A stretch of 53,845 bases of DNA from positions 1 to 53,845 of the forward strand of contig CANJSM010000001.1 in assembly GCA_947477015.1 (NCBI GenBank), in the 5' to 3' direction. The notes under the pieces were generated by a model. That model made no database searches. It was given only the letters and a program-made list of their open reading frames with translations, and had not been told where the DNA came from. The stretch is from Legionellaceae bacterium (lineage in GTDB: Bacteria > Pseudomonadota > Gammaproteobacteria > Legionellales > Legionellaceae). This document shows positions 1 through 33,107 of this stretch, in pieces. Both the position numbers and the translations under genes were made by a program. Positions within the stretch are counted from its first letter, which is position 1. Every line of letters begins with the position of its first letter.

Positions 1-87
1 GATCCCATCTCGAACTCAGAAGTGAAACAAACGAGCGCCGATGATAGTGTGGAGTCTCTCCATGTGAAAGTAGGTCATTGCCAGGAT
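1..87 (+). rRNA. rrf: 5S ribosomal RNA, 3' portion (5' end lies outside the window)
   Basis: GATCCCATCTCGAACTCAGAAGTGAAAC...GAAAGTAGGTCATTGCCAGGAT matches the conserved helix IV/V and 3' end of bacterial 5S rRNA. A hairpin plus T-run follows immediately. Confidence 0.85.
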
Positions 88-5014: not shown

Positions 5015-5556
5015 AAAACGAACAAAATTTAATTTGGATAGATCTAGAAATGACAGGTCTTAGTCCAGAAAATGATAGAATCATAGAAATCGCTACGTTG
5101 GTAACAGATTGTCATTTGAATATACTTGCCGAAGGACCCGTTTTTGCGATTGCGCAATCAGAAGAGCGTATATTAGGTATGGACTCTTGGAATACAAAGC
5201 AGCACAACCAATCGGGTTTAGTAACTCGTATGCGTGAGCAGGGTGTGTCAGAATCTTATGCTGAGCAAGCAACGATTGAATTTTTGAAGCGCTACGTGGA
5301 TCAAGGTAAGTCACCAATGTGCGGTAACAGTATCTGCCAGGATCGACGATTTTTATGCAGGTACATGCCTGAGCTGGCTAGTTTTTTTCATTATCGTAAT
5401 ATGGATGTCAGCACATTAAAAGAATTAGCGCTACGGTGGCATCCACAGTTGGCAAAAGGATTTAAAAAGGAATCCAAACATTTGGCGATGGATGATATTA
5501 AGGATTCAATAGACGAGCTGGCGTATTATCGCGAGCATTTTATTAAATTACCCTAA
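5011..5556 (+). CDS. orn: oligoribonuclease
   Basis: DEDDh exonuclease motifs ([18 protein letters not shown]). Its start overlaps the cca stop in an ATGA junction. Confidence 0.95.
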
Positions 5557-5570
5557 AGCGAGGGATTAAC

Positions 5571-6278
5571 ATGCTTGAACGCGAAGTATTAGTGCTGCCC
5601 AATGGTGCTGATAAATTATTGTTACATTCGTGCTGTGCACCTTGTTCTGGTGAGGTCATGGAGGCCTTGGTTGCATCCAATATTAATTTTTCAATCTTTT
5701 TTTATAATCCTAACATTCATCCTGTCCAAGAATATGAAACAAGAAAGCAAGAAAATGTAGCCTTTGCAGAAAAACATTCTATTCCGTTTATTGATGCAGA
5801 TTATGACAAAGACAATTGGTTTGAGCGTGTTAAGGGGCAGGAAATGGAGCCTGAGCGCGGTAAGCGTTGCACGACATGCTTTGATATGCGGTTTGAACGC
5901 ACCGCGTTGTATGCTTATGAACATGGTTTTCCTGTTATTTGTACCTCTCTTGGCATTTCTCGTTGGAAAGACATGAATCAAATCAACGATTCCGGCATTC
6001 GTGCTGCAAGCCGTTATCCTGGTATGGAGTATTGGACATACAATTGGCGAAAAAATGGCGGGTCATCTCGTATGTATGAAATCGCTAAGCGTGAAAATTT
6101 TTATAAACAGGAGTACTGTGGTTGTGTGTATTCTTTGCGTGATACGAATGCTTGGCGTAAGCAGAATACTCGTGAGAGGATAAAGCTCGGCGTGAGTTAT
6201 TACGGAGAGGAAGCATTGAGCGCAATCGATAAACCCGGTTGTTCTACATGTGTCATGACGAAGGACCCAAAGGAATAA
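5571..6278 (+). CDS. queH: epoxyqueuosine reductase QueH (DUF208)
   Basis: [16 protein letters not shown] and EYCGC cysteine motifs typical of QueH. Confidence 0.8.
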
Positions 6279-6311
6279 ATAGATAAAGTCTAACAAAGGG
6301 AGATTTGGATT

Positions 6312-7076
6312 ATGTTATTGATCAATAAGCTATACGTGTTAGTGGCTTTTTTTGCAACCTTGATTTTAATCTTGTCGCATACATTAAGTCCTTGGTTTTC
6401 AGAGCGCCTCCCCGGCAAAAGTAAAGCATTTGTTTCTTTTGCTGGCGGAGTCTCTGTGTCTTATGTGTTTTTAGACATGCTTCCGAATCTCGTGGAGTAC
6501 AATAAGCCCATTGGAGAATATTTGCTTGCGAACCACTGGCTGACACCCTTTACACAAGTATCGATTTATATTGTCGCTTTGTTCGGGTTTCTTGTCTATT
6601 ATGGGTTTGATTTATTTGCAGAACGTTATCAAGAAAAAAAACATGATAATCGAGTAGTCTATTTATTGCATCTGGCCATGTTTTCTATTTATAACATCTT
6701 GATAACCTATACTATGTCTTTACGGGCATTGACGGGTATCACATATACCGTTTTATTTACCTTTGCTATGGCGCTGCATTTGGTGTTGACGGATCGTAAA
6801 TTTACTCGCATATTTCCTGTCCAATTTAATCATCTGGGACGTTTTGTGTTGAGCTTGGCCTTATTCAGTGGATGGTTGATGTCTGCTATATTTGATCCGA
6901 TTCGTGTCTTGTTTGTGGCATTTATGACCGCATTTCTCGCGGGCTCTATATTGTTAAATGTGTTTCGTGAAGAGCTTCCCAATAGTGATTTGGCTAGCTT
7001 TCGTTGGTTCGCATTCGGCTCGTTGATGATTGCTGTGATTTCTTTATTACAAACATGGATTGTCAGAACGATGTAA
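6312..7076 (+). CDS. integral membrane protein of unknown function (possibly a ZIP-like metal transporter)
   Basis: About 8 predicted TM helices and an internally repeated motif (VFLDMLPNL / VFREELPNS). There is a GGGAG RBS upstream. The family assignment is uncertain. Confidence 0.55.
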   Translation: MLLINKLYVLVAFFATLILILSHTLSPWFSERLPGKSKAFVSFAGGVSVSYVFLDMLPNLVEYNKPIGEYLLANHWLTPFTQVSIYIVALFGFLVYYGFDLFAERYQEKKHDNRVVYLLHLAMFSIYNILITYTMSLRALTGITYTVLFTFAMALHLVLTDRKFTRIFPVQFNHLGRFVLSLALFSGWLMSAIFDPIRVLFVAFMTAFLAGSILLNVFREELPNSDLASFRWFAFGSLMIAVISLLQTWIVRTM

Positions 7077-7134: not shown

Positions 7135-8364
7135 ATGAGTTATCTGATTGATATTTCGCTGTTAAAAGCCAATCGTGAATATTCACTCCTGTATAGTGGA
7201 CAGTTTATTTCGTTCATAGGCACCATGATCACAGGCGTAGCCTTGCCTTGGCAAATTTATCAATTAACAGATTCTTCCTTAATGGTTGGTCTGTTAAGTT
7301 TGGTGCAATTACTTCCTCTGCTTTTCACGGCTTTGTTAGGTGGTGTATTTGCCGATCGTTATAATCGACGCAAACTAGTTATTATCAGTGAGTGCGTCCT
7401 CATGGTTGGGTGCGCTGCGCTGGTATTTAATGCCCATCTGGCACATCCGGATTTAATTACTATTTATGTTGTTTCAGCGATAATGTCAGCGATTACTGGA
7501 CTGCATCGACCTTCTTTTGAAAGCATGACACAACAATTGGTCAACTCTGCTGATTATAAAGCGGTCGGTGCTTTAGCGAGCTTCAAGTTCAGTTTTTGCA
7601 TGATTGTAGGACCGGCCATTGGCGGTTTACTGATCGCACGCTTTGGCGTCTTTCTGACGTATATTATTGATCTATTAACTTTTTTTATTTCATTACTTAC
7701 CTTAAGTTTAATGGCGCCATTTAAACAACCCGTTGTCGCAATACATCCCACAGTGATTAAATCGTTAAAAGAGGGCCTGACATTTGCCATGACGAGACAG
7801 GAGTTAATGGGAAGTTATTTGGTCGATTTTATTGCCATGATCTTCGCGATGCCTAACGCCTTGTTTCCTGCTATTGCTCAATCACTTGGTGGAGCAAAAG
7901 CATTAGGACTACTCTATGCATCACCAGCAGTCGGGTCTTTGCTGATATCATTTTTTAGCGGTTGGACTGCGCGGGTAAAACACGATGGAAAAGCCATTGC
8001 CATTGCCGCAGGCTTCTGGGGGCTATCCATGATTGGATTTGGAGTGAGTACCAACCTCTATGTTGCCTTGTTTTGTTTGGCGCTCTCAGGCGCCTTTGAT
8101 GCCATTAGCGGTATATTCAGAAGCACATTATGGAACAATGTCATTCCACGCGATTACCGAGGACGTTTAGCAGGAATAGAAATGCTAAGTTACATGGGTG
8201 GTCCAAAACTTGGCGACACCAGGGCTGGTGCGATTGCTTCACTTTTTGGTATTACGACAGCAGTTGTTTCCGGTGGAGTGCTTTGTGTTGCTGGTGTAAT
8301 GGTCTGTTGTTTATTGATGCCAAAATTTTGGAATTACAACATGTCAGATAAAACGAGGTCATAG
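7135..8364 (+). CDS. MFS transporter (EntS / transmembrane-secretion-effector-like)
   Basis: Twelve-TM profile with the MFS loop motif GGVFADRYNRRK between TM2 and TM3. Confidence 0.8.
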   Translation: MSYLIDISLLKANREYSLLYSGQFISFIGTMITGVALPWQIYQLTDSSLMVGLLSLVQLLPLLFTALLGGVFADRYNRRKLVIISECVLMVGCAALVFNAHLAHPDLITIYVVSAIMSAITGLHRPSFESMTQQLVNSADYKAVGALASFKFSFCMIVGPAIGGLLIARFGVFLTYIIDLLTFFISLLTLSLMAPFKQPVVAIHPTVIKSLKEGLTFAMTRQELMGSYLVDFIAMIFAMPNALFPAIAQSLGGAKALGLLYASPAVGSLLISFFSGWTARVKHDGKAIAIAAGFWGLSMIGFGVSTNLYVALFCLALSGAFDAISGIFRSTLWNNVIPRDYRGRLAGIEMLSYMGGPKLGDTRAGAIASLFGITTAVVSGGVLCVAGVMVCCLLMPKFWNYNMSDKTRS

Positions 8365-22898: not shown

Positions 22899-23993
22899 TT
22901 AGCGAATAATTTGCTCGATAGTTGCCCCGCCGAGGCATTGGTTTTTATCATAAAATACAATGTATTGTCCCGGAGTGACCGCCCTTTGCATGCTGGAAAA
23001 TAGTACGCAATGTTGATTGTTGTTATCTAATGGTGAGATGACACAGGCTTGATCCTCTTGGCGATATCGCGTTTTAGCGTAACACGTCATTGGAAAAGCG
23101 TCCTCGGCAAAGGTTTTTAGCCAATGAATAGGCCCACACATCAGCCCTTGTGAGTACAACATTGGATGATGATTGCCTTGGGCTACGATCAACGTATTGG
23201 TCGCTGTGTCTTTATCCACCACATACCATGGATTTTCACTGCCATCCCGCGTGCCGCCAATCCCTAACCCTTGGCGTTGGCCCAACGTATAAAACATCAG
23301 CCCATCATGACGTCCCAGTGTTTCACCTTGAGCGCTTTTCATCACACCAGGACGCGCCAAGATAAATTCATTCAAAAATGTTTTAAAGCGTTTTTCACCA
23401 ATAAAACAAATTCCTGTTGAATCTTTTTTAGCATGCGTCACCAAACCCATTTCAGCGGCTATTCGTCTGACATCGGTTTTAAGTAGCTCACCTACAGGAA
23501 ACAATGTTTTGGCCAATGCTGAGGGTTCAACGGCATGTAGAAAATAGCTTTGATCTTTGTCGCGGTCTTTCGCTTTATATAGCTCACCGACGCCTTCATT
23601 GACTTGAACGCGGGCGTAATGGCCTGTTGCAATAAAATCAGCTCCTAGAGATAAGGCATGCTGAAGAAACGCGTTGAATTTAATTTCTTTATTGCACAAT
23701 ACATCAGGATTGGGGGTGCGTGCTTGCTCATATTCATTGAGAAAATGATTAAAAACGCGATCCCAGTAGGCTTGCGAAAAATTAACGCTGTGTAGTGGAA
23801 TGCCTATTTGATCACAAACAGCTTGCGCATCCGCCAAATCTTGAGCTGCTGCACAGTAGCCTTCTTTGTCATCCTGTTCCCAATTTTTCATGAACAGGCC
23901 TTCAACCTCATAACCTTGTTGCTGCAATAAAAAGGCTGCAACGGAGGAGTCTACTCCACCCGACATGCCTACAATCACTTTTGTTTTTTTCAT
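22899..23993 (-). CDS. mnmA: tRNA-specific 2-thiouridylase MnmA
   Basis: PP-loop [10 protein letters not shown] and catalytic cysteines (CNKEIKF, GICFIGE). Confidence 0.95.
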
Positions 23994-24023: not shown

Positions 24024-24977
24024 TTAAGCACATTCCGTTAGCTTCATTTTTTTAAGCCCTAGTCGATTAAACAACGCATGGTCTTCTTCTGGAACAGGGT
24101 TTGCTGCAGTTAAGAGTTTTTCGCCGTAAAATATTGAATTGGCTCCGGCCATGAAACACAGTGCTTGCAGCTCGTCCGACATTTGTTCTCTGCCTGCAGA
24201 CAGACGAATCATGGTGTTAGGCATGATGATGCGTGCTAGGGCTATGGTGCGCACGAAATCAAAACAGTCTACATCAGTTTGTTGGGCTAGGGGCGTGCCG
24301 GGTATTTTAATCAGTTTATTAATTGGGACTGATTCAGGTGGCTCATCAAGGTTTGCGAGTGCTATTAACATGCCGATACGGTCAGTATTTGTTTCCCCTA
24401 GGCCAAGAATACCACCACTGCAGACTTTGACACCAGATTGACGAACCCGGCTTAAAGTGTCTAGTCTATCTTGGAAGGTACGTGTAGAGATGATTTGATC
24501 GTAAAATTCGGGAGAGGTATCGATGTTGTGATTGTAAAAATCAAGCCCCGCTTCTTTCAACTGCGTGGCTTGTTCGTCTTTTAATAATCCCAGTGTCACG
24601 CAGGTTTCAAGCCCTAGCTTTTTGACCTCGGTCACCATTTCACACACGGTATTTAAGTCTTTTTCACTCGGGCCGCGCCAAGCAGCTCCCATGCAAAAAC
24701 GAGTGCTTCCCGCTTCTTTGGCACGCGTAGCTGCTTCCAAAACGTCTTTTAGTTCCATTAAGGGTTCTTTTTGCAATCCTGTTTTATAATGAGCAGACTG
24801 TGGGCAATACGAGCAATCCTCAGGGCAGCGACCTGTTTTAATGCTTAGCAACGTGCTAATCTGCACGCTGTTTGGATCAAAGTGATTGCGATGTGTTGTT
24901 TGAGCTTGATACATGAGTTCATTGAATGGCAGGTTGAACAGGTGCTCTGCCTCTTGTAAAGTCCACGTTTTCTTCAT
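24024..24977 (-). CDS. bioB: biotin synthase
   Basis: Radical-SAM motif [11 protein letters not shown] and YNHNIDT. Confidence 0.95.
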
Positions 24978-25009
24978 GATTAAATACCCATTAATTTTAC
25001 AGGAATAGC

Positions 25010-26146
25010 ATGTTTGAACTATACCGGCAATACGGTGAAAAGCGGAAGATTACAGGAATATATCGTCAATTACCAGAATCAGGCCGTTCAACAGCAGTCA
25101 CAACATTAGACTTTTCAAGCAATGATTATCTAGGACTAGGCCAACGAAAAGAGCTCCTTGATGCAGCCATTGAGGTTGGTTTGCGAGAAGGTGTAGGTGC
25201 TACCGGATCACGCCTACTCTCTGGCAATAAGCCCATTTTTGAGAAACTTGAGTCTCGTATTGCACTAGATAAGCACACAGAAACAGCACTCTTGTTTAAC
25301 TCAGGTTTTCAAGCCAATTTAACGGTGTTGTCAAGCCTACTGGATTCGAGAGTACTCAACAGCAAACCCATTGTATTTTTTGATCGATTAAATCATGCGA
25401 GTTTATATCAAGCCATGTTCTTAAGTGGTGCAGAACTGGTTCGGTATAGGCACTTGGATTTGGATCATTTGTCAGAATGCTTGAGGCATTATCAACAAGA
25501 TAAACGCCCTAAATTTATTGTTACTGAAACGCTGTTTGGAATGGATGGTGATATTTTGCCTCTCGATAATGTATTGGAGCTTGCTCGAGAGCATGATGCG
25601 TTATTGTACTTGGATGAGGCCCATGCGGTTGGCATTCTTGGGAAGCAGGGGTATGGTTTGTCGACAACCATTGAGCATGATGTTCCCACTATAGTAATAG
25701 GGACCCTGAGCAAGGCGATTGGTTGTGCGGGTGCCTATGTTGCTTGTGATAACATCATGAAAGAGTATTTGATCAACAAAGCAGAAGGCTTTATTTATTC
25801 TACGGCCGCATCACCGATGGTGATGGGGGCTGCCTTAGCAGCATGGGAGATGATTCCTTTATTTAATACAGCGCGCAAAACCTTGTTTACTTTAGCGGAT
25901 GGTTTAAGAACGCGATTGCAAACTTTAGGTTTTGATACAGGCCCCTCCCTTTCACACATTATTCCCTTGATTGTGGGACAGTCGGCTTTAACAGAGCTAA
26001 ATACTAAACTACGAGCTGCCGGGGTGGTCGCATCATTCATTCGAAAACCCACCGTCCCGTCTGGTCGCGAGCGCGTTCGTTTGGCGTTGACTGTGAATCA
26101 CACCCAACAGGATATTGATTACTTGCTGGATGTGCTTGCATCATGA
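25010..26146 (+). CDS. bioF: 8-amino-7-oxononanoate synthase
   Basis: FSSNDYLGL, the DEAH..G motif and the PLP lysine region GTLSKA. Confidence 0.9.
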
Positions 26147-26844
26147 TGGAAGGCACTTCAACAATCTTGGAATCGCATAGAAAACAATGTGTTGTGTTTT
26201 GTCATGGGTTTGGGTTTGATGCATCGTTTTGGGATGCTTTACGGCCTTATTTTGTAGGATTGGATACGTTTTTTTTGGACTTAGGCTATTTTAGTGAGAT
26301 GCATGAGGCTTTTTCTCAATATTCGTGTTGGGCCAAGGCCCAACCTACGGATACTGACTTCATCGGTGTTGGTCATTCAATAGGACTTATTAAGTTACTC
26401 TCATTAAACATCTCGTTTAAATATTTAGTTGGATTGCATGGATTTGTGAATTTTTTGGGAGAAGATGCGGCACTTCATCGTCGAAGACAGCGTGAATTAA
26501 GTGTCTTAACGAAGCACTGTATGGATTCTTCGGCATTAACTTTACAAGCATTCTATCAGCGAGCAGGGGTGGACTTTACTGCGCCCTTAGGGCATTTAAA
26601 TCAGCAGAGATTGCTCGATGATCTAGCGTTGTTGGCACATCCTATCCCTATACCAAAGAATATTCCATTGCTTATTTTAGGCAGCAATGACGATAAAATT
26701 ACACCACCGGCATTGCTGCTCGATAATTTTGCTGGCCACCAACAGGTCACCGTTGAGATTTTAGATCAGGTTCAGCATGGGTTGGGGTATCTTAAACCCG
26801 CTGAAGTGTATCAACGCATCATGCGTTTTTTAGAGGAGGTTTAA
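26143..26844 (+). CDS. short alpha/beta hydrolase, candidate pimeloyl-ACP methyl ester esterase (BioH-like)
   Basis: Nucleophile elbow GVGHSIG, with later Asp (SNDDKITP) and His (VQHGLG). It sits between bioF and bioD, with an ATGA overlap onto bioF. Confidence 0.65.
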   Translation: MMEGTSTILESHRKQCVVFCHGFGFDASFWDALRPYFVGLDTFFLDLGYFSEMHEAFSQYSCWAKAQPTDTDFIGVGHSIGLIKLLSLNISFKYLVGLHGFVNFLGEDAALHRRRQRELSVLTKHCMDSSALTLQAFYQRAGVDFTAPLGHLNQQRLLDDLALLAHPIPIPKNIPLLILGSNDDKITPPALLLDNFAGHQQVTVEILDQVQHGLGYLKPAEVYQRIMRFLEEV

Positions 26845-26845
26845 C

Positions 26846-27484
26846 ATGCGGATTTTTATTACAGGCACGGACACTAACGTCGGAAAAACCGTCGTGTCCA
26901 GCTGGCTGTGTTTGAAAACAGGCTATGACTATTTTAAACCCATACAGTCTGGCGTGAGTGAAGGACGAGATAGCCAGGTGGTGGCAGCATACTCTGGTGC
27001 ACGCGTATTTCCCGAAGCCTATTGTTATCAAGCGCCTTTGTCACCCCATTTGGCAGCTGCTGCTGAACACGAGACGATTGATACTCAGCGCATTCAATTG
27101 CCTGACTCGAATAACTTGATAGTCGAGGGTGCTGGTGGCGTGCTAGTGCCGATTAATGACGATACCTTAATGGTTGATTTCATGAAGCAATTGAATGTGC
27201 CAGTGATCTTGGTGGCGTCATCGCGCTTAGGAACAATCAATCATTCTTTGCTAAGTCTAGAAGCACTTCGAGCCCGAAATATAGACGTATTGGGTGTGAT
27301 TGTTACCGGAGAACCTAATGATGCCTCGATTAGATCGATAGAAGTTTACGGCCATACAGAAGTACTCGCGCATCTGCCTTTTTTGCCTGAGTTGAATCAA
27401 TTCACTTTGAACCAAGTGGACTTTGGCGTAAAATTAACGTCTATTTTTGACTTAAAGAAACGGCTCTTTAGCTATTCTACCTGA
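26846..27484 (+). CDS. bioD: dethiobiotin synthetase
   Basis: MRIFITGTDTNVGKT P-loop and the EGAGG motif. Confidence 0.9.
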   Translation: MRIFITGTDTNVGKTVVSSWLCLKTGYDYFKPIQSGVSEGRDSQVVAAYSGARVFPEAYCYQAPLSPHLAAAAEHETIDTQRIQLPDSNNLIVEGAGGVLVPINDDTLMVDFMKQLNVPVILVASSRLGTINHSLLSLEALRARNIDVLGVIVTGEPNDASIRSIEVYGHTEVLAHLPFLPELNQFTLNQVDFGVKLTSIFDLKKRLFSYST

Positions 27485-27510
27485 AAAAATAAGATTTTCA
27501 GGTAGAATAG
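27472..27510 (+). other. perfect 16-bp stem / 7-nt loop hairpin spanning the bioD stop codon (intra-operon attenuator or processing/stability element)
   Basis: CTATTCTACCTGAAAA-aataaga-TTTTCAGGTAGAATAG. No clear T-run follows. Confidence 0.5.
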
Positions 27511-27551
27511 GTGTCTTTGGATGAGTCAGTGAAACGAATGAGAGCTCCTTT

Positions 27552-28832
27552 ATGACTTTAAGTGAACGTGATAGAGCCCTTATATGGCATCCTTTCACGC
27601 AGGAAAAAACCGCGACGATCCCGCTTGCTATTCAACGCGCACAGGGTTCTTATGTTTATGATGAGCAGGGTCAATGTTATCTAGATTTGATTTCTAGTTG
27701 GTGGGTTAATTTGCATGGGCATGCACACCCTGTGATTGCAAATGCCATTTATGAGCAAGCTAGTACGCTGGAGCATATTTTGTTTGCGGGGTTTACCCAC
27801 GAGCCTGCGGTGAAATTGTGCGAGCAGTTAAAGTCGATTGTATCGGATACCCTGACGCGTTTTTTCTTTTCAGACAATGGATCAACTTGTGTGGAAGTGG
27901 CGTTAAAAATGGCGTCACAATATTGGTATAACCGAGAGCAACAAGTCAGGCCACTCTTTATTAGTTTTGAGGGGGGGTATCATGGCGACACCTTTGGAGC
28001 CATGTCGGTGGGTGCGCAATCCGGTTATCATGATCCCTTTAAATCACTTTTTTTCAAAGTATTAAGTGTGCCTTTTCCTGCCACCTGGGACGGGGATGAA
28101 GACATTGATAAGAAAGAGCAGGATGCGCTGGCGTGTCTTGACGAACAGTTGCATGACCATGTCGGTGAGATTGCTGCCATCATTTTAGAGCCGTTGATGC
28201 AAGGCGCCAGTGGCATGCGCATGTGCCGCCCAACGTTTGTGAAAGCCGTAGTTGAGCGGGTGCGACAAGCGGGTATTTTGGTGATTTTTGATGAGGTCAT
28301 GACCGGATTTGGACGCACCGGAAGCACGTTTGCTTATCAGCAGACCGGTGTTACGCCAGATTTTTTATGTGTTTCCAAAGGCATTACCGGTGGTTTTCTG
28401 CCCTTGGCGTTAACCATCACCACCGATAAAATCTATGATGCTTTTTTAAGTGAACACTGGCACCATGCCTTCGCACACGGGCATTCCTATACTGCAAATC
28501 CCATAGCTTGTGCCGCAGCTGTTGCGTCGTTTGATTTGTTGATGCATCCTGAAACACAACAGGCTATCAAAGCTATTCATGATGCGCACTTAGAAGGGTT
28601 GGCCTATTTAAGCAAAGCGTCTGACTGCATTGAAAGAATTAGATGTCTTGGGACTATTGCGGCCTTTGATATTAATGGGCGAGACATGAGCGTGTATAAG
28701 CAGGCCTTTTTGAACCACGGACTGTTGATTAGACCCATAGGCAACACGGTTTATTTATTACCTCCTTATTCAACGACACCTGAACAAATTCGTGCCGCGT
28801 ATGCAGGGGTAGGTGAGGTGATTTTAGGTTAA
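27552..28832 (+). CDS. bioA: adenosylmethionine-8-amino-7-oxononanoate aminotransferase
   Basis: Class III aminotransferase features: WHPF, FDEVMTGFGRTG and the PLP lysine in CVSKGITGG. Confidence 0.9.
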   Translation: MTLSERDRALIWHPFTQEKTATIPLAIQRAQGSYVYDEQGQCYLDLISSWWVNLHGHAHPVIANAIYEQASTLEHILFAGFTHEPAVKLCEQLKSIVSDTLTRFFFSDNGSTCVEVALKMASQYWYNREQQVRPLFISFEGGYHGDTFGAMSVGAQSGYHDPFKSLFFKVLSVPFPATWDGDEDIDKKEQDALACLDEQLHDHVGEIAAIILEPLMQGASGMRMCRPTFVKAVVERVRQAGILVIFDEVMTGFGRTGSTFAYQQTGVTPDFLCVSKGITGGFLPLALTITTDKIYDAFLSEHWHHAFAHGHSYTANPIACAAAVASFDLLMHPETQQAIKAIHDAHLEGLAYLSKASDCIERIRCLGTIAAFDINGRDMSVYKQAFLNHGLLIRPIGNTVYLLPPYSTTPEQIRAAYAGVGEVILG

Positions 28833-28899
28833 GCAGGTGTAATTCTTACTTCTAATGTTATACCTGGACATTGGACAGAATACAGGATTTAATGTTCAT

Positions 28900-29214
28900 A
28901 TGAATGATAAAATTGATGTCCGCTGGGTTCAGCGTTTCGCGAATTATAAAAAAGCGTTGTCTCAACTGGAAAAATTTATTGCCAAAGGCAAGCTAAATGA
29001 GCTTGAAGTACAAGGTTTAATACAAGCTTTTGAGTATACTCATGAGTTGGCTTGGAATGTTTTGCGCGATTATTTGCGAGACCAGGGCAATTTCGGTATC
29101 CACGGATCACGAGATGCTACACGAGAGGCATTCAAATTAGATTTAATTCAAGAGGGCGAGATCTGGATGGACATGATCCAAGATCGTAAACGCCTCCTCA
29201 GCCTGAACGGTTAA
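28900..29214 (+). pseudogene. orphan HI0074-family HEPN gene truncated at the active site
   Basis: It shares IQAFEYTHELAWNVLRDYL with the intact copy at 11686. It ends ...MIQDRKRLLSLNG* exactly where the Rx4H motif (DRSVTSH in the intact copy) should be. No MNT partner is present. Confidence 0.6.
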
Positions 29215-29328
29215 GGAATCGATATAGAACACTAGGGCGGTTTGTCCGCGGGACGTCGAACTTCAGAAGATGAATTGTCTAAACGCCCTAGGACATTAAG
29301 TTTTTTTGTTTTTTTGGGATGTGATTGG

Positions 29329-30015
29329 ATGAGTCGTTCAAAGGAAAAGGAGTGGATGGATCTGGGGCCTGCGTTTTATACGCCAGAAGAATATGCCGAT
29401 TGTCTCAAAATTTTGTTTGATGTTAACAGGCTGTTAGGTTTTTTCAGAAGTACTGTGAAGTTGTTAAAACAGTTTCCTGGTGATGCCTCTTTGGTTGATG
29501 TAGGCTGTGGTGGGGGACTGTTTTTACTTCATTTGAGTCAACACTTTCCAAATATGCAATTCTTAGGTATCGATGTATCGGAGGTTGCGATTGCACAGGC
29601 GAGAAATGAGTTAATGCATTCGCCGAGCTCTTTTGGCAAGGTTGAATTTCAATTACAACCTCAGTTAGCACTCGAGCTCGCCAAACAAAGTATCGATATT
29701 GTTCTTATTACGTTGGTTTGCCATCATCTTGATGACGACGAATTGGTTGGTTTCTTGCAAAATGCTTATCAAGCAGCACGCCGTGCGGTCATTATTAATG
29801 ATTTACATCGTCATCCAGTCGCCTATTGGTTTTATAAAAAAATCAGTCCAGTGATGTTTCGCAATCGATTAATTACCCATGACGGGTTGGTCTCTATTCA
29901 GCGCAGTTTCACGCGAGCTGAGCTACAACGTCTGTTTAAGCGTGCGAATATTCAACAGTATGAGATTAAGTGGTGTTTTCCCTTTCGATGGCGTGTTGTG
30001 TTATGGAAGAATTAA
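29329..30015 (+). CDS. class I SAM-dependent methyltransferase (first gene of the PKS operon)
   Basis: SAM motif I LVDVGCGGGLF and post-I acidic GIDVS. The stop overlaps the start of the next gene by 13 nt. The ATG at 29329 is preferred over the non-ATG track start. Confidence 0.8.
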   Translation: MSRSKEKEWMDLGPAFYTPEEYADCLKILFDVNRLLGFFRSTVKLLKQFPGDASLVDVGCGGGLFLLHLSQHFPNMQFLGIDVSEVAIAQARNELMHSPSSFGKVEFQLQPQLALELAKQSIDIVLITLVCHHLDDDELVGFLQNAYQAARRAVIINDLHRHPVAYWFYKKISPVMFRNRLITHDGLVSIQRSFTRAELQRLFKRANIQQYEIKWCFPFRWRVVLWKN

Positions 30016-31079
30016 TCATTGTTGGGGGTGGTGTTGCAGGCCTTGGATGTTTAAATGCACTCCTGGATCACAACGTGTCACCCTTACTGCTTGAGGGCTC
30101 AACCATTGGTTCGCCTAAAATGTGTGGGGAATTTCTAGCTCCTCCTGTGATTGAGCCGCTCAAACAATGGGGGATTGGACCTTTACAGACGATAAAGCAA
30201 GCGCGGTTTATAGGAACAAATACGGCAATGCAATGTTCTTTTCCTAGACCAGCAGGAGCCTATGCGAGACATGAGGCTGAGCTTGAATTGGCTGTGCGTG
30301 CAAGAAAACTTGGGGGGCGTATTCTTGAGCAGTCACCGATTAAACACATTATCCCTCCAACAAAAAAGGCACCTTATGTCTTGCAGTTGGCTTCAGGTGA
30401 AACCCTGCAAGCGCGAGCGGTGATTTTTGCGACGGGACGATTTTCGCAATCTCAGGGGCTATCGAAGTATGTGGGATTTAAAACACATGTGTCTAAGATT
30501 GTTGAACCGGAAACCTTACTCATGTTTGGTTTTTCAGGCGGGTATCTGGGTATCGTTCCGGTGACCTCTGAAACCAGTAATTTGACGTGTTTGGTTAAAC
30601 GAGAAGTGGTTGAGGCGGTGGGATCGTGTCACGATTTTTTGGAGGCAACATTAACACGCTTCTCGTCTTTGCGAGCAACGCGAAGCAATCCAGCCGTTCA
30701 GGATTCGGCGCTGGATTGCTTCGCCTCGCTTGAAAAGACCGACTGGTTAGAAGGCCCTGCACCTGCATTTGGCATGAAAACGCGCCCTAACTGGTCTTCA
30801 GCCTATTGGATTGGCGATGCATTTGCGAGTGTACATCCAGCCATTGGGTACGGATTTGCGCACAGTGTGACCAGTGCTCTACTGGCCGCAAAATATTATT
30901 TAAAACAAGACCCATCAGGATATCAGGCGATGCTTCAACGAACGATGCGACCAAAGCGGATGATAGGGTTAGGGATGCATCATTTACTACAAAAACCCCG
31001 GCTTTGCAGTGCGGTGTCTCATTGGGTTGAGGCAAATCAATGGATTAGTCATGGATTATTAAACTTTTTGGACTATTAA
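30003..31079 (+). CDS. FAD-dependent oxidoreductase/monooxygenase (geranylgeranyl-reductase / PHBH-fold family)
   Basis: N-terminal dinucleotide fold LIIVGGGVAGLG...LLLE and the late motif GDAFASVHPAIGYGF. Its stop lies 1 nt before the PKS ATG. Confidence 0.8.
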   Translation: MEELIIVGGGVAGLGCLNALLDHNVSPLLLEGSTIGSPKMCGEFLAPPVIEPLKQWGIGPLQTIKQARFIGTNTAMQCSFPRPAGAYARHEAELELAVRARKLGGRILEQSPIKHIIPPTKKAPYVLQLASGETLQARAVIFATGRFSQSQGLSKYVGFKTHVSKIVEPETLLMFGFSGGYLGIVPVTSETSNLTCLVKREVVEAVGSCHDFLEATLTRFSSLRATRSNPAVQDSALDCFASLEKTDWLEGPAPAFGMKTRPNWSSAYWIGDAFASVHPAIGYGFAHSVTSALLAAKYYLKQDPSGYQAMLQRTMRPKRMIGLGMHHLLQKPRLCSAVSHWVEANQWISHGLLNFLDY

Positions 31080-31080
31080 T

Positions 31081-32178
31081 ATGTACTCTGCAATAACGGC
31101 AATTGGAACGGCAACCCCTGCATATCGGCGTGCGCAGCACGAGCTTGCTGAACTCATTTCGGAAGGCTTTCACTTAAATCCTGTACAAACAAAACTATTG
31201 AAGCGAATTTATAAATCATCTGGTATCGAGCAACGGCATAGTGTGTTGACCGATTATTGTAAATTACCCGGAGAGTTCGAGTTTTTTCCTAACGATCCAT
31301 CCGTGAGTTTTCCAAGCACAGCTAAGCGTATGGCTGTATACAAAGAGAATGCTTTAAACTTGGCAATTGCCGCAATTGAAGATTGTCTTGCTCCCATCAA
31401 ACAACCTCACATTACTCACGTTATCACTGTAAGCTGCACGGGCATGTATGCACCAGGGATTGATATAGAAATTGTGCAGAAATTGAAGCTAGCCTCATCC
31501 ACGAAACGTACCTCAATTAATTTTATGGGGTGTTATGGCGCTTTTAACGGCATGAAAGCGGCTGATTCAATTTGTCGCGCTGATCCTGATGCCACGGTTT
31601 TGTTGGTTTGCGTTGAGCTTTGTTCGATTCATATTCAAAATAACTTTACTCTGGATAGTCTTATTTCAAATGCAATTTTTGCAGACGGTGCGGCAGCGGT
31701 ATTGATTCAAAGTCAACTTGCAATCTCACAAAAGCACTTAAAGTTCACATCATTTTATTGTGACATCATGCCTCAAACTCACGATGACATGGCTTGGCAT
31801 ATTGGCGACTTTGGCTTTGACATGGTGTTGAGTGCTTATGTTCCCGAAGCCATTAAGTCGGGTATTTTGGCGTTTTCTGAAGGCTTACTCAGGCAATCCA
31901 ATCAATCATTGGGTGATATCGATTATTTTGCAATTCACCCCGGGGGTGTAAAAATACTTCAGGCCTGTGAATCAGCATTTAATATTAGCTCGTATGATAA
32001 TCGCTTTTCATATGATGTGTTGCGGCAATATGGCAACATGTCTTCCGCTACGGTGTTGTTTGTTTTGAAAGAAATTTGGGCCAATCTGGATGAAGTAGAT
32101 GATCAAAAAACCCTGTTTAGCTGCGCGTTTGGGCCGGGCTTAACCTTGGAATCCATGTTGCTAGAGGTCAAATACTAA
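31081..32178 (+). CDS. type III polyketide synthase (chalcone/stilbene synthase superfamily)
   Basis: Colinear CHS-like motifs are present: ITHVITVSCTGMYAPGID, FMGCYGAFNG (catalytic Cys151, codon 31531-31533), FAIHPGG (His286, 31936-31938), YGNMSSATVLFVL (Asn319, 32035-32037) and GPGLT. Confidence 0.9.
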   Translation: MYSAITAIGTATPAYRRAQHELAELISEGFHLNPVQTKLLKRIYKSSGIEQRHSVLTDYCKLPGEFEFFPNDPSVSFPSTAKRMAVYKENALNLAIAAIEDCLAPIKQPHITHVITVSCTGMYAPGIDIEIVQKLKLASSTKRTSINFMGCYGAFNGMKAADSICRADPDATVLLVCVELCSIHIQNNFTLDSLISNAIFADGAAAVLIQSQLAISQKHLKFTSFYCDIMPQTHDDMAWHIGDFGFDMVLSAYVPEAIKSGILAFSEGLLRQSNQSLGDIDYFAIHPGGVKILQACESAFNISSYDNRFSYDVLRQYGNMSSATVLFVLKEIWANLDEVDDQKTLFSCAFGPGLTLESMLLEVKY

Positions 32179-33107
32179 GGCGTATTTAAGCTCTCACTAA
32201 TAATACTGGTTAACATGCCTTGCCGCGTCCTGGTCCGTTTTATCACCGTGTAAACAGTTAGATGACTATCACGGCTTGACGTGGTGGCGATACTTAAAAA
32301 ATAATTGCTCTCAACAGTCACTTGTTCTTTAGGAATATTTAATTTTTGTAATAACGAAATACTATTTGCAAGCGTTATCCCGCCTGATTCCTCTCGAGCT
32401 ACTAAAATTTCTTTCACTTGGGCTGCATCCAGTCCATTACCTAGGGTCATAAGTATAGCTTTGGGTGCGGTATTGATGTTTATTGGTGTAATTTCGGGTA
32501 ATGCTGTCATGACAGGCAATGCCATTTGATACACGTCAGGAGTGACGCCGCTGACTAGGCGAAACTCGGATATATTTCGCATGGGTTGATGACCTGGGTT
32601 ATAGGGTGGATTTCGTTGTAAATAAGCACTTGAAAATGAGTCAGCTCCTTGTTCGAGCCGATTAGTTCGAATCCAATGGGTGGTTGCATCAAAAATTAAT
32701 TTTCGATCGGATTGGTTAATTTTTTTAGGCCAATTCTCTAACAGTCGATAGAATAACGCATGAAATTTTTTATCCTGCAAATTGTTTACATTAAATCTTG
32801 CTTGTAGATCATACACCGCCCCTTCAGTATGAACGTTTGGATAAATGGATTGTAATTTTGTTGGAAAAGTAAATATTTTTTCCTTTGTATTTAATGTGTT
32901 TGATGAGTTGTTCTGGGCAGATAATTTATCCATAGCCCACCAAGTGACCGCTTGCGAGGCTAAATACAGTTTGTCACTGTTGATGTGTGCAGAGGTGCGA
33001 TAAATATCTAATCTTAAGCGCGTACTCATTGCTGTTGCTGCAATGGCAACGAGGGTCATGATGAACAACGCTGAAATGAGCGCACTTCCCAATGATTTAT
33101 TCTGCAT
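32175..33107 (-). CDS. gspK: type II secretion minor pseudopilin GspK (LspK)
   Basis: N-terminal hydrophobic helix GSALISALFIMTLVAI, GspK size, and position as the last gene of the pseudopilin operon. Confidence 0.8.
   Translation of the reverse strand: MQNKSLGSALISALFIMTLVAIAATAMSTRLRLDIYRTSAHINSDKLYLASQAVTWWAMDKLSAQNNSSNTLNTKEKIFTFPTKLQSIYPNVHTEGAVYDLQARFNVNNLQDKKFHALFYRLLENWPKKINQSDRKLIFDATTHWIRTNRLEQGADSFSSAYLQRNPPYNPGHQPMRNISEFRLVSGVTPDVYQMALPVMTALPEITPININTAPKAILMTLGNGLDAAQVKEILVAREESGGITLANSISLLQKLNIPKEQVTVESNYFLSIATTSSRDSHLTVYTVIKRTRTRQGMLTSIISESLNTP

Follow-up and report, generated by a model that had tools for sequence, protein, structure and literature searches.

Here, we analysed a three-gene cassette on a contig of a Legionellaceae bacterium (CANJSM010000001.1, assembly GCA_947477015.1), whose whole 53,845-nt stretch is referred to as the window. 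The genes code for a class I S-adenosylmethionine (SAM)-dependent methyltransferase (MT), a flavin adenine dinucleotide (FAD)-dependent oxidoreductase (the flavoprotein) and a type III polyketide synthase (PKS), which an earlier note, made from the letters alone, had proposed as a phenolic-lipid pathway. The three same-strand open reading frames (ORFs) were found exactly where that note had placed them (Table 1), and all motifs quoted in it were located at their residues, namely the triad contexts of the PKS, motif I of the MT, and GxGxxG together with GDAFASVHPAIGYG in the flavoprotein. The assigned start codons are favoured over upstream TTG and GTG alternatives by the N-termini of orthologues. 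Of the translational coupling claimed for the cassette, the tight junctions hold; coupling as such, together with co-transcription, we infer from this geometry alone, and the three genes are probably translated from one mRNA. Relatives keep similarly tight junctions: Legionella maioricensis (L019) has a gap and an overlap of 1 nt each, and Paludisphaera (L081) has overlaps of 4 nt. Compared with a 97%-identical sister contig (L089), the ratio of non-synonymous to synonymous substitution rates (dN/dS) was 0.21 for the MT, 0.16 for the flavoprotein and 0.09 for the PKS, similar to the flanking genes bioA (0.10) and gspK (0.14), which indicates that all three cassette genes, each of them intact, are kept by purifying selection. 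A scan of the plus strand from 28440 to 32276 performed at chance level and returned neither a sigma-70-like site nor a terminator; the spacer in front of the MT gene was empty as well, with an RNA fold z-score of −0.07, no Rfam match and no conservation among relatives. The cassette may be transcribed from a weak promoter of its own or by read-through from the same-strand bioF-bioA and HEPN-like genes. No signal of recent transfer was seen in its composition, its GC content (41–49%) being like that of the flanks.

Table 1 Features of the cassette and of the spacer preceding it in the window.
Feature	Position	Strand	Remark
Spacer 5' of the MT gene, 114 nt	29215-29328	+	no recognisable control element
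MT: class I SAM-dependent methyltransferase, 228 aa, HidA-position gene	29329-30015	+	ATG 29329, TAA 30013-30015
Overlap of MT 3' end and flavoprotein start, 13 nt	30003-30015	+	read from sequence
Flavoprotein: FAD-dependent oxidoreductase, 358 aa, short subfamily, HidB-position gene	30003-31079	+	ATG 30003, TAA 31077-31079
Gap between flavoprotein and PKS genes, 1 nt	31080	+	read from sequence
PKS: type III polyketide synthase, 365 aa, HidC-position gene	31081-32178	+	ATG 31081, TAA 32176-32178

The assignment of the third ORF as a type III PKS, as proposed in the earlier note, was borne out at the level of domains, residues and fold. Both Pfam domains of the chalcone and stilbene synthases (CHS/STS) exceed the gathering cut-off of 27 (Chal_sti_synt_N, 91.6 bits, 6.3e-26; Chal_sti_synt_C, 74.4 bits, 1.3e-20). 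The best solved relatives by sequence are PKS18 of Mycobacterium tuberculosis (5.7e-49), Ectocarpus PKS1, Steely1 of Dictyostelium and a type III PKS of Mycobacterium marinum, the first three of which accept aliphatic acyl starters. All 60 listed sequence matches in the PDB are type III PKSs, and so are the top 50 Foldseek matches (TM-scores 0.77–0.86) of an AlphaFold2 (AF2) model with a predicted local distance difference test score (pLDDT) of 86 and a predicted TM-score of 0.90. The catalytic residues Cys151 (in FMGCYGAFNG, from residue 148), His286 (in FAIHPGG, from 283) and Asn319 (in YGNMSSATVLFVL, from 317) stand in register with C175, H313 and N346 of PKS18, so that the postulated superposition on a known triad holds; they are invariant in family alignments of 31 and 33 members, the former spanning Legionellaceae, metagenome-assembled genomes (MAGs) labelled Coxiellaceae, Psychrobacter, Cytophagales, a planctomycete and Deinococcus. 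The enzyme further has an AFGPGL loop and a phenylalanine, Phe200, that aligns with Phe224 of PKS18 and that we take to be the Phe215 gatekeeper of CHS; Phe200 and the GFGPG loop are invariant in the 31-member alignment. Judged by its sequence, the PKS carries the complete catalytic machinery and is predicted to condense malonyl-CoA.

In the PKS, Trp239, at the position that governs cyclisation specificity, is invariant in the 31 family members and aligns with Leu266 of PKS18, presumably the position of Gly256 in alfalfa CHS numbering. Met248 follows nine residues later, the spacing seen between Gly284 and Met293 of ArsC, and Cys181 aligns with the tunnel residue Cys205 of PKS18. In the long-chain acyl-primed type III PKSs of Azotobacter vinelandii, Trp281 of ArsB and Gly284 of ArsC, together with Met293, decide between alkylresorcinol and alkylpyrone, and the swaps W281G and G284W reverse specificity (PMC6274091); both the ArsB-type Trp and a Met at this distance recur in the window PKS. 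Trp is also present in mycobacterial PkqA and in the polyketide-quinone PKSs of Streptomyces (PMC9927152), as it is at the cyclisation position of the Paludisphaera borealis PKS (L081). Trp239, the spacing to Met248 and the match of Cys181 to the tunnel position thus favour a long-chain 5-alkylresorcinol over a pyrone as the predicted product. The AF2 model was dropped as a view of Trp239: residues 231–260 (about 31771–31860) have low pLDDT, and the model places helices in this stretch instead of the strands of solved type III PKSs.

The first ORF carries SAM motif I (VDVGCGGG) at residue 56 and matches the Pfam families Methyltransf_25, 12, 11, 31 and 23 (1e-15 to 1e-9); NCBIfam PRK06202 covers its full length with 124 bits, below the cut-off of 243 bits. 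It is homologous over its full length to the MT of the P. borealis operon (28% identity over 230 aa, E 1e-18) and 31% identical to the MT of a Deinococcus cluster.

The flavoprotein is more difficult to assign. It contains the motifs VGGGVAGLG at residue 7, GxGxxG (8–13), KMCGEF (39–44), GGYLGIVP (179–186) and GDAFASVHPAIGYG (271–284), and its domain scores are weak: Pfam DAO reached 31.9 bits and the geranylgeranyl (GG) reductase superfamily model TIGR02032 50.9 bits against a cut-off of 158.8 bits, and the protein stays below the cut-off of every curated family. Its AF2 model (pLDDT 91.5) has the general fold of the p-hydroxybenzoate hydroxylase (PHBH) type, and the top Foldseek neighbours comprise FasV, the monooxygenase PqsL (TM-scores 0.74–0.78), the archaeal GG reductase 3oz2, squalene epoxidase and the phenolic halogenases Bmp2, PltM and RadH. 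As modelled, this fold fits monooxygenases, reductases and halogenases equally, with none decisively closest. KMCGEF is invariant and aligns with the GSPVRCGEG Cys motif of 3oz2. The identity as a flavin hydroxylase implied by the comparison in the earlier note is thus not established: scores fall below all cut-offs, the Cys motif resembles that of GG reductases, the fold suits several classes and a planctomycete counterpart was without detectable effect when expressed. Two specific identities were weighed and set aside. For a flavin-dependent halogenase, WxWxIP is absent from the 358 aa, the only invariant lysines are K39 and K160, and the similarity to halogenases lies at the level of the general PHBH fold; for a true GG reductase (TIGR02032), the score is far too low and, although the Cys motif is present, the aromatic motif reads GGYLGIVP.

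A further hint comes from the genomic company of the flavoprotein. Its family profile recovered 181 clusters (50% identity) at E<1e-30 among 1.84 billion representatives, and four out of four distant members that were sampled (134–227 bits) lie in clusters with PKS and MT genes, in the orders PKS-MT-FAD, FAD-MT-PKS and MT-FAD-PKS (the last one L088), which argues for a family dedicated to type III PKS pathways. MT and flavoprotein families are consistently encoded beside type III PKSs. Compared with the FAD-dependent oxidoreductase (FDO) family of the Paludisphaera type, the family of the flavoprotein aligns end to end in a profile-profile comparison (hhalign probability 98.75%, E 1.4e-16, 343 columns); the planctomycete-type FDO is 24% identical and scores 41 bits with the window-family hidden Markov model, and the two form separate subfamilies. 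We also came across a natural fusion of MT domains with a Paludisphaera-type FAD oxidoreductase (P0461, 637 aa, an ENA metagenome protein), an argument that the two tailoring enzymes work as partners. A link by name to HidB was not found: 10 distant representatives of the family are unnamed metagenome proteins, and a search with the Paludisphaera FDO returned generic names. Among the distant clusters, the FAD-MT-PKS cluster of L087 (3214–8326) runs on into genes for a short-chain dehydrogenase, a FabA-like dehydratase and a ketosynthase, so that some versions of the module may have their own supply of starter units, and an NTP_transf_2 gene (L084, 2254–2577) lies upstream of a PKS-MT-FAD cluster.

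The order MT-FAD-PKS is known from the compact, stand-alone cluster hidABC of Cyanobium sp. LEGE 06113 and other picocyanobacteria (Costa et al. 2019, via PMC6836626 and PMC8086630). As far as these accounts of it go, its PKS is an alkylresorcinol synthase with a long-chain acyl starter, its MT acts on the alkylresorcinol ring, HidA having been shown to be an O-methyltransferase acting on pentadecylresorcinol, and HidB is a presumed, unproven ring hydroxylase (PMC6836626, PMC8086630). The host is a phototroph, whereas the window stems from a gammaproteobacterium with an intracellular lifestyle, and the likeness is one of gene order and published descriptions; a search for the cyanobacterial hid cluster among plasmids with two PKS queries found none. 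In planctomycetes, 58 out of 96 type III PKS genes stand at the end of an MT/FAD-oxidoreductase/PKS operon, with a gene order identical to hidABC (Milke et al. 2024, PMC10896814). Four of the planctomycete PKSs gave pentadecyl- and heptadecyl-resorcinols (C15/C17), and joint co-expression of the MT and flavoprotein genes of Gimesia maris added one C-methyl group (PMC10896814). The operons of G. maris and Rhodopirellula baltica thus share the gene order of the window, but their flavoproteins are of a type of about 390 aa and belong to a distant subfamily, compared with about 350 aa in the window. A further MT-FDO-PKS operon, on plasmid PALBO1 of P. borealis (L081), has 4-nt overlaps; its gene arrangement is also seen in L088. 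All three of its proteins are homologous to those of the window, yet identity is low throughout (39% for the PKS), the FDO is of a different subfamily and the operon is itself uncharacterised. In Deinococcus radiodurans, the order is PKS-MT-FDO, followed by a glycosyltransferase gene. The P. borealis and Deinococcus clusters indicate that the three-gene module recurs across phyla in several orders.

Two further systems were compared. In pkqABC of Mycobacterium smegmatis and srsABC of Streptomyces griseus, a PKS, an MT and a flavin- or oxidoreductase turn a fatty-acyl-primed alkylresorcinol into methylated alkyl-benzoquinones (PMC9927152). Their genes are ordered PKS-MT-oxidoreductase, an order other than that of the window; the cassette does depart from srsA-B-C, as the earlier note said, but its order is not unusual, being exactly that of the 58 planctomycete operons and of hidABC, the hierridin genes that the note had cited without remarking on this. 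In the ars operon of A. vinelandii, the PKSs are coupled to type I fatty acid synthases of their own (ArsA/D), and there is neither MT nor flavoprotein, unlike the window; it provides the phenolic lipids of cysts, and no sign of a link to cysts was seen at the window cassette.

How widespread is the cassette? Related loci were collected by a pattern-based genome scan, from which 80 of 399 matches were kept. Roughly half of these (41/80) carry a close MT, taken as 48% identity or more, and a flavoprotein beside the PKS; MT identities at these loci were given as 51–74%. The short flavoprotein is found in 16 of the 41, belonging to uncultured Legionellaceae, Coxiellaceae-labelled MAGs, Psychrobacter, Psychromonas and a Cellvibrionaceae MAG; the cassette is colinear in the first two and rearranged in Psychrobacter and Psychromonas. 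The remaining 25 carry a flavoprotein of about 400 aa and include, among the 80 loci, all named Legionella and Fluoribacter species in which the MT is present, for example L. longbeachae, L. parisiensis, L. anisa, L. bozemanae, L. wadsworthii, F. gormanii and L. maioricensis. Orthologues in the first six of these and in others are 63–68% (PKS) and 54–62% (MT) identical to the window proteins, and their MT and flavoprotein genes are mostly transcribed divergently from the PKS gene, in contrast to the colinear genes of the window. The window and L. maioricensis share 61% identity in the MT and 63% in the PKS, but 22% in the flavoprotein. With orthologous MT and PKS and a flavoprotein identity of 21–22%, the same slot holds two deeply diverged enzymes. 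This can be followed at L016 (3946–5151) and L019 (4778–6001), whose flavoproteins of about 400 aa are 21–22% identical to the one of about 350 aa encoded at 30003–31079 of the window, in cassettes with 58–61% identity in the MT and 63–66% in the PKS; short and long flavoproteins both keep the motifs K(M/V)CGEF, GGYxG and FKxH. A short-flavoprotein cassette was also found on the 49-kb plasmid 5 of Psychrobacter urativorans (NZ_CP012711, L082 6001–8824; 60% identity in the PKS, 51% in the MT and 40% in the FAD protein), where a recombinase gene and an IS630-related gene lie within about 3–4 kb of it; this setting, in a culturable organism, suggests horizontal spread.

The cassette is accordingly no rarity: both PKS and MT are present in numerous named species of Legionella, and a type III PKS 'cluster K' restricted to one clade was listed in this genus as early as 2016 (Tobias et al. 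2016, PMC5126622). Homologous Legionella genes are already annotated as type III PKS in public records, and antiSMASH reports mention type III PKS regions in L. lytica and 'L. felix'. Few metabolites of Legionella have been solved, among them legioliulin, legiobactin and legionellol (PMC5126622). The statement that no type III PKS product is characterised from Legionellales was upheld, as our full-text literature search found neither a described product nor a phenotype.

Taken together, the identity of the PKS, its relatives with aliphatic starters, Trp239, the order and homology of the operon, the dedicated flavoprotein family and purifying selection lead us to favour, on balance, the reading of the cassette as a three-gene operon of the hidABC type that makes a long-chain phenolic lipid with tailoring. 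The conversion of a fatty-acyl starter into such a lipid, as the earlier note had proposed, is probably correct in view of the PKS identity, the intact triad and the match to the alkylresorcinol operon type. In the pathway we envisage, the PKS would load a long-chain fatty acyl thioester from primary metabolism, bound to coenzyme A (CoA) or acyl carrier protein (ACP), onto Cys151 and extend it with three malonyl-CoA units, and the resulting tetraketide would be turned into a 5-alkylresorcinol by C2–C7 aldol condensation and decarboxylation. The MT would then methylate the ring, O- and C-methylation both being known for homologous operons, and the flavoprotein would oxidise it, with hydroxylation as the most likely reaction; the outcome would be a hierridin-like methoxy-alkylphenol or an alkyl-hydroquinone or -benzoquinone. 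Such a hydrophobic product should partition into the cell envelope. We class the cassette as a new member, as yet uncharacterised, of the hid/pkq/srs group of alkylresorcinol-tailoring operons rather than as a new kind of system, and its one real twist is the undescribed short flavoprotein subfamily.

Several observations weigh against this reading. Identity of the PKS to that of P. borealis (39%) is no higher than to Deinococcus PKSs, so that a specific kinship with HidC is unproven by sequence. The Trp rule stems from Azotobacter and actinobacterial enzymes, equivalence to ArsB was deduced from the PKS18 alignment and residue spacing rather than from direct alignment, and the AF2 model is unreliable at just this segment (pLDDT 54–73 over residues 231–260). 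The flavoprotein is only distantly related to the planctomycete type and bears a reductase-like Cys motif, and no effect of the planctomycete counterpart could be detected when it was expressed (PMC10896814). No promoter was found in the scanned plus strand (28440–32276), nor did the literature search find a described product of a Legionellales enzyme.

Other explanations concern either the PKS or the flavoprotein. That the third ORF is a FabH-type β-ketoacyl-ACP synthase III (KAS III) of fatty-acid synthesis among unrelated housekeeping genes has next to no probability. Its weak matches to ACP_syn_III (29.2 bits), ACP_syn_III_C (45.9 bits) and the NCBIfam FabH models (at most 64 bits) are to be expected for any condensing enzyme of the thiolase fold; the CHS/STS domains score higher and above their cut-offs, every FabH model stays far below its own of at least 249 bits (TIGR00747, 46.5 against 292; PRK09352, 63.9 against 249), the listed sequence and Foldseek matches are type III PKSs without exception, and linkage of PKS and MT is kept across phyla. 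We consider the KAS III identity refuted at the level of sequence and fold. Very unlikely, too, is a small aromatic product made from malonyl-CoA alone, of the phloroglucinol, dihydroxyphenylacetyl-CoA or tetrahydroxynaphthalene type, without any lipid: DpgA is indeed the top NCBIfam model (148.9 bits), but this is far under its cut-off of 425 bits, dpgBCD-like or phl genes are absent nearby, the closest solved enzymes take aliphatic acyl starters and the operon partners match those of alkylresorcinol operons. More serious, albeit still unlikely, is an alkylpyrone synthase that closes the ring by lactonisation as PKS18 and ArsC do, in which case the operon would make methylated long-chain alpha-pyrones, comparable to the alkylpyrone methyl ethers of Bacillus BpsA/BpsB. 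PKS18 is the best solved sequence match, homologues are named 'alpha-pyrone synthase' in public sources, and pyrones are often released as side products by resorcinol-forming type III PKSs (PMC6274091). These names derive from similarity only, however, and the invariant Trp239 stands where PKS18 has Leu266 and ArsC has Gly284, a position at which Trp turns ArsC towards resorcinol; moreover, MT and FDO are the partners found in operons shown to make alkylresorcinols.

For the flavoprotein, the alternative is that it does not hydroxylate the ring but acts as a GG-reductase-like C=C reductase on an unsaturated acyl chain or intermediate, or as a halogenase, so that the end product would differ from the hierridin or quinone model. 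The best curated family match, the GG-reductase superfamily, points in this direction, as do the alignment of KMCGEF with the 3oz2 motif, GGYLGIVP at what we take to be the place of GGYxWxFP in reductases, and the sequence ATG in place of the usual DG motif. Foldseek ranks 3oz2 and the halogenases Bmp2, PltM and RadH as high as monooxygenases, hierridin C is chlorinated by an enzyme that is not known (PMC6836626), and co-expression of the planctomycete FDO gave no hydroxylation (PMC10896814). On the other hand, WxWxIP and an invariant Lys about 60 residues after GxGxxG are missing, the GG-reductase score lies far below its cut-off, the best TM-scores are those to the monooxygenase PqsL, and both the hydroxyl group of hierridin B and the PkQ quinone need an oxygenase, for which the flavoprotein of the cluster is the sole candidate. 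We thus regard a role other than ring hydroxylation as improbable, although far from negligible.

But what would the bacterium gain from such a lipid? By analogy, the cassette could make a redox-active methylated alkyl-hydroquinone or -benzoquinone, with ring oxidation performed by the flavoprotein subfamily of about 350 aa, and the product could serve as an auxiliary membrane electron carrier or antioxidant in stages that are non-replicating, cyst-like or limited by oxygen, whether within amoebae or outside them. This idea, which as a whole strikes us as a long shot, parallels the polyketide quinones of mycobacteria and Streptomyces and the cyst lipids of Azotobacter; for PkQ, a respiratory role has been demonstrated under hypoxia and in spores (PMC9927152). 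If hierridin- or quinone-like phenolic lipids were indeed made, they would add a lipid class to the envelope biology of Legionellales and widen the range of hid-type operons to intracellular gammaproteobacteria. In practical terms the value is modest, since the type of pathway, the order of its genes and the likely scaffold have been described in other organisms. The most useful new point is the presence of two deeply diverged flavoproteins in the same cassette.

The cassette is flanked by bioA upstream and convergent gspK downstream, the neighbours named in the earlier note, which did not mention an intervening HEPN-like ORF of 119 aa (28855–29214, plus strand; Pfam NTase_sub_bind, 4.4e-29, HI0074 family). 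No ORF for a partner minimal nucleotidyltransferase was found near it, and its counterpart in L089 is 153 aa long (7755–8216). At the other end, the stop codon of the PKS gene overlaps that of gspK (32175–32178), so that an intrinsic terminator would not fit between the cassette and the pseudopilin operon of type II secretion. The arrangement of bioA, cassette and gspK proved to be conserved in part. In the nearest relatives, L001 and L003, the cassette lies between an mnmA-like gene and gspK, whereas in the window and in L089 the biotin operon and the HEPN-like ORF are interposed upstream; the gspK junction is therefore conserved, and the bioA junction, shared with L089 and absent from L001, L003 and L004, is lineage-specific. 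The biotin operon (bioB, bioF, a hydrolase gene, bioD and bioA; 24024–28832) follows the mnmA-like gene (22899–23993) in the window and in L089 and is absent from that position in L001, L003 and L004. In L004, glnA and gspF come after the PKS gene with no gspG-K matches between, so that the locus is rearranged. L089 differs from the window by about 1.3–1.4 kb of extra sequence between bioD and bioA (5078–6350), where the window has a 67-nt spacer (27484–27552); this segment codes for an additional protein, broken by a scaffold gap, that is rich in repeats and, as judged by eye, has an ankyrin-like C-terminus. No tRNA genes were found in the window, whose edge truncates a 5S rRNA gene; the 3' part of this gene occupies positions 1–86 (plus strand; Rfam RF00001, 47.6 bits).

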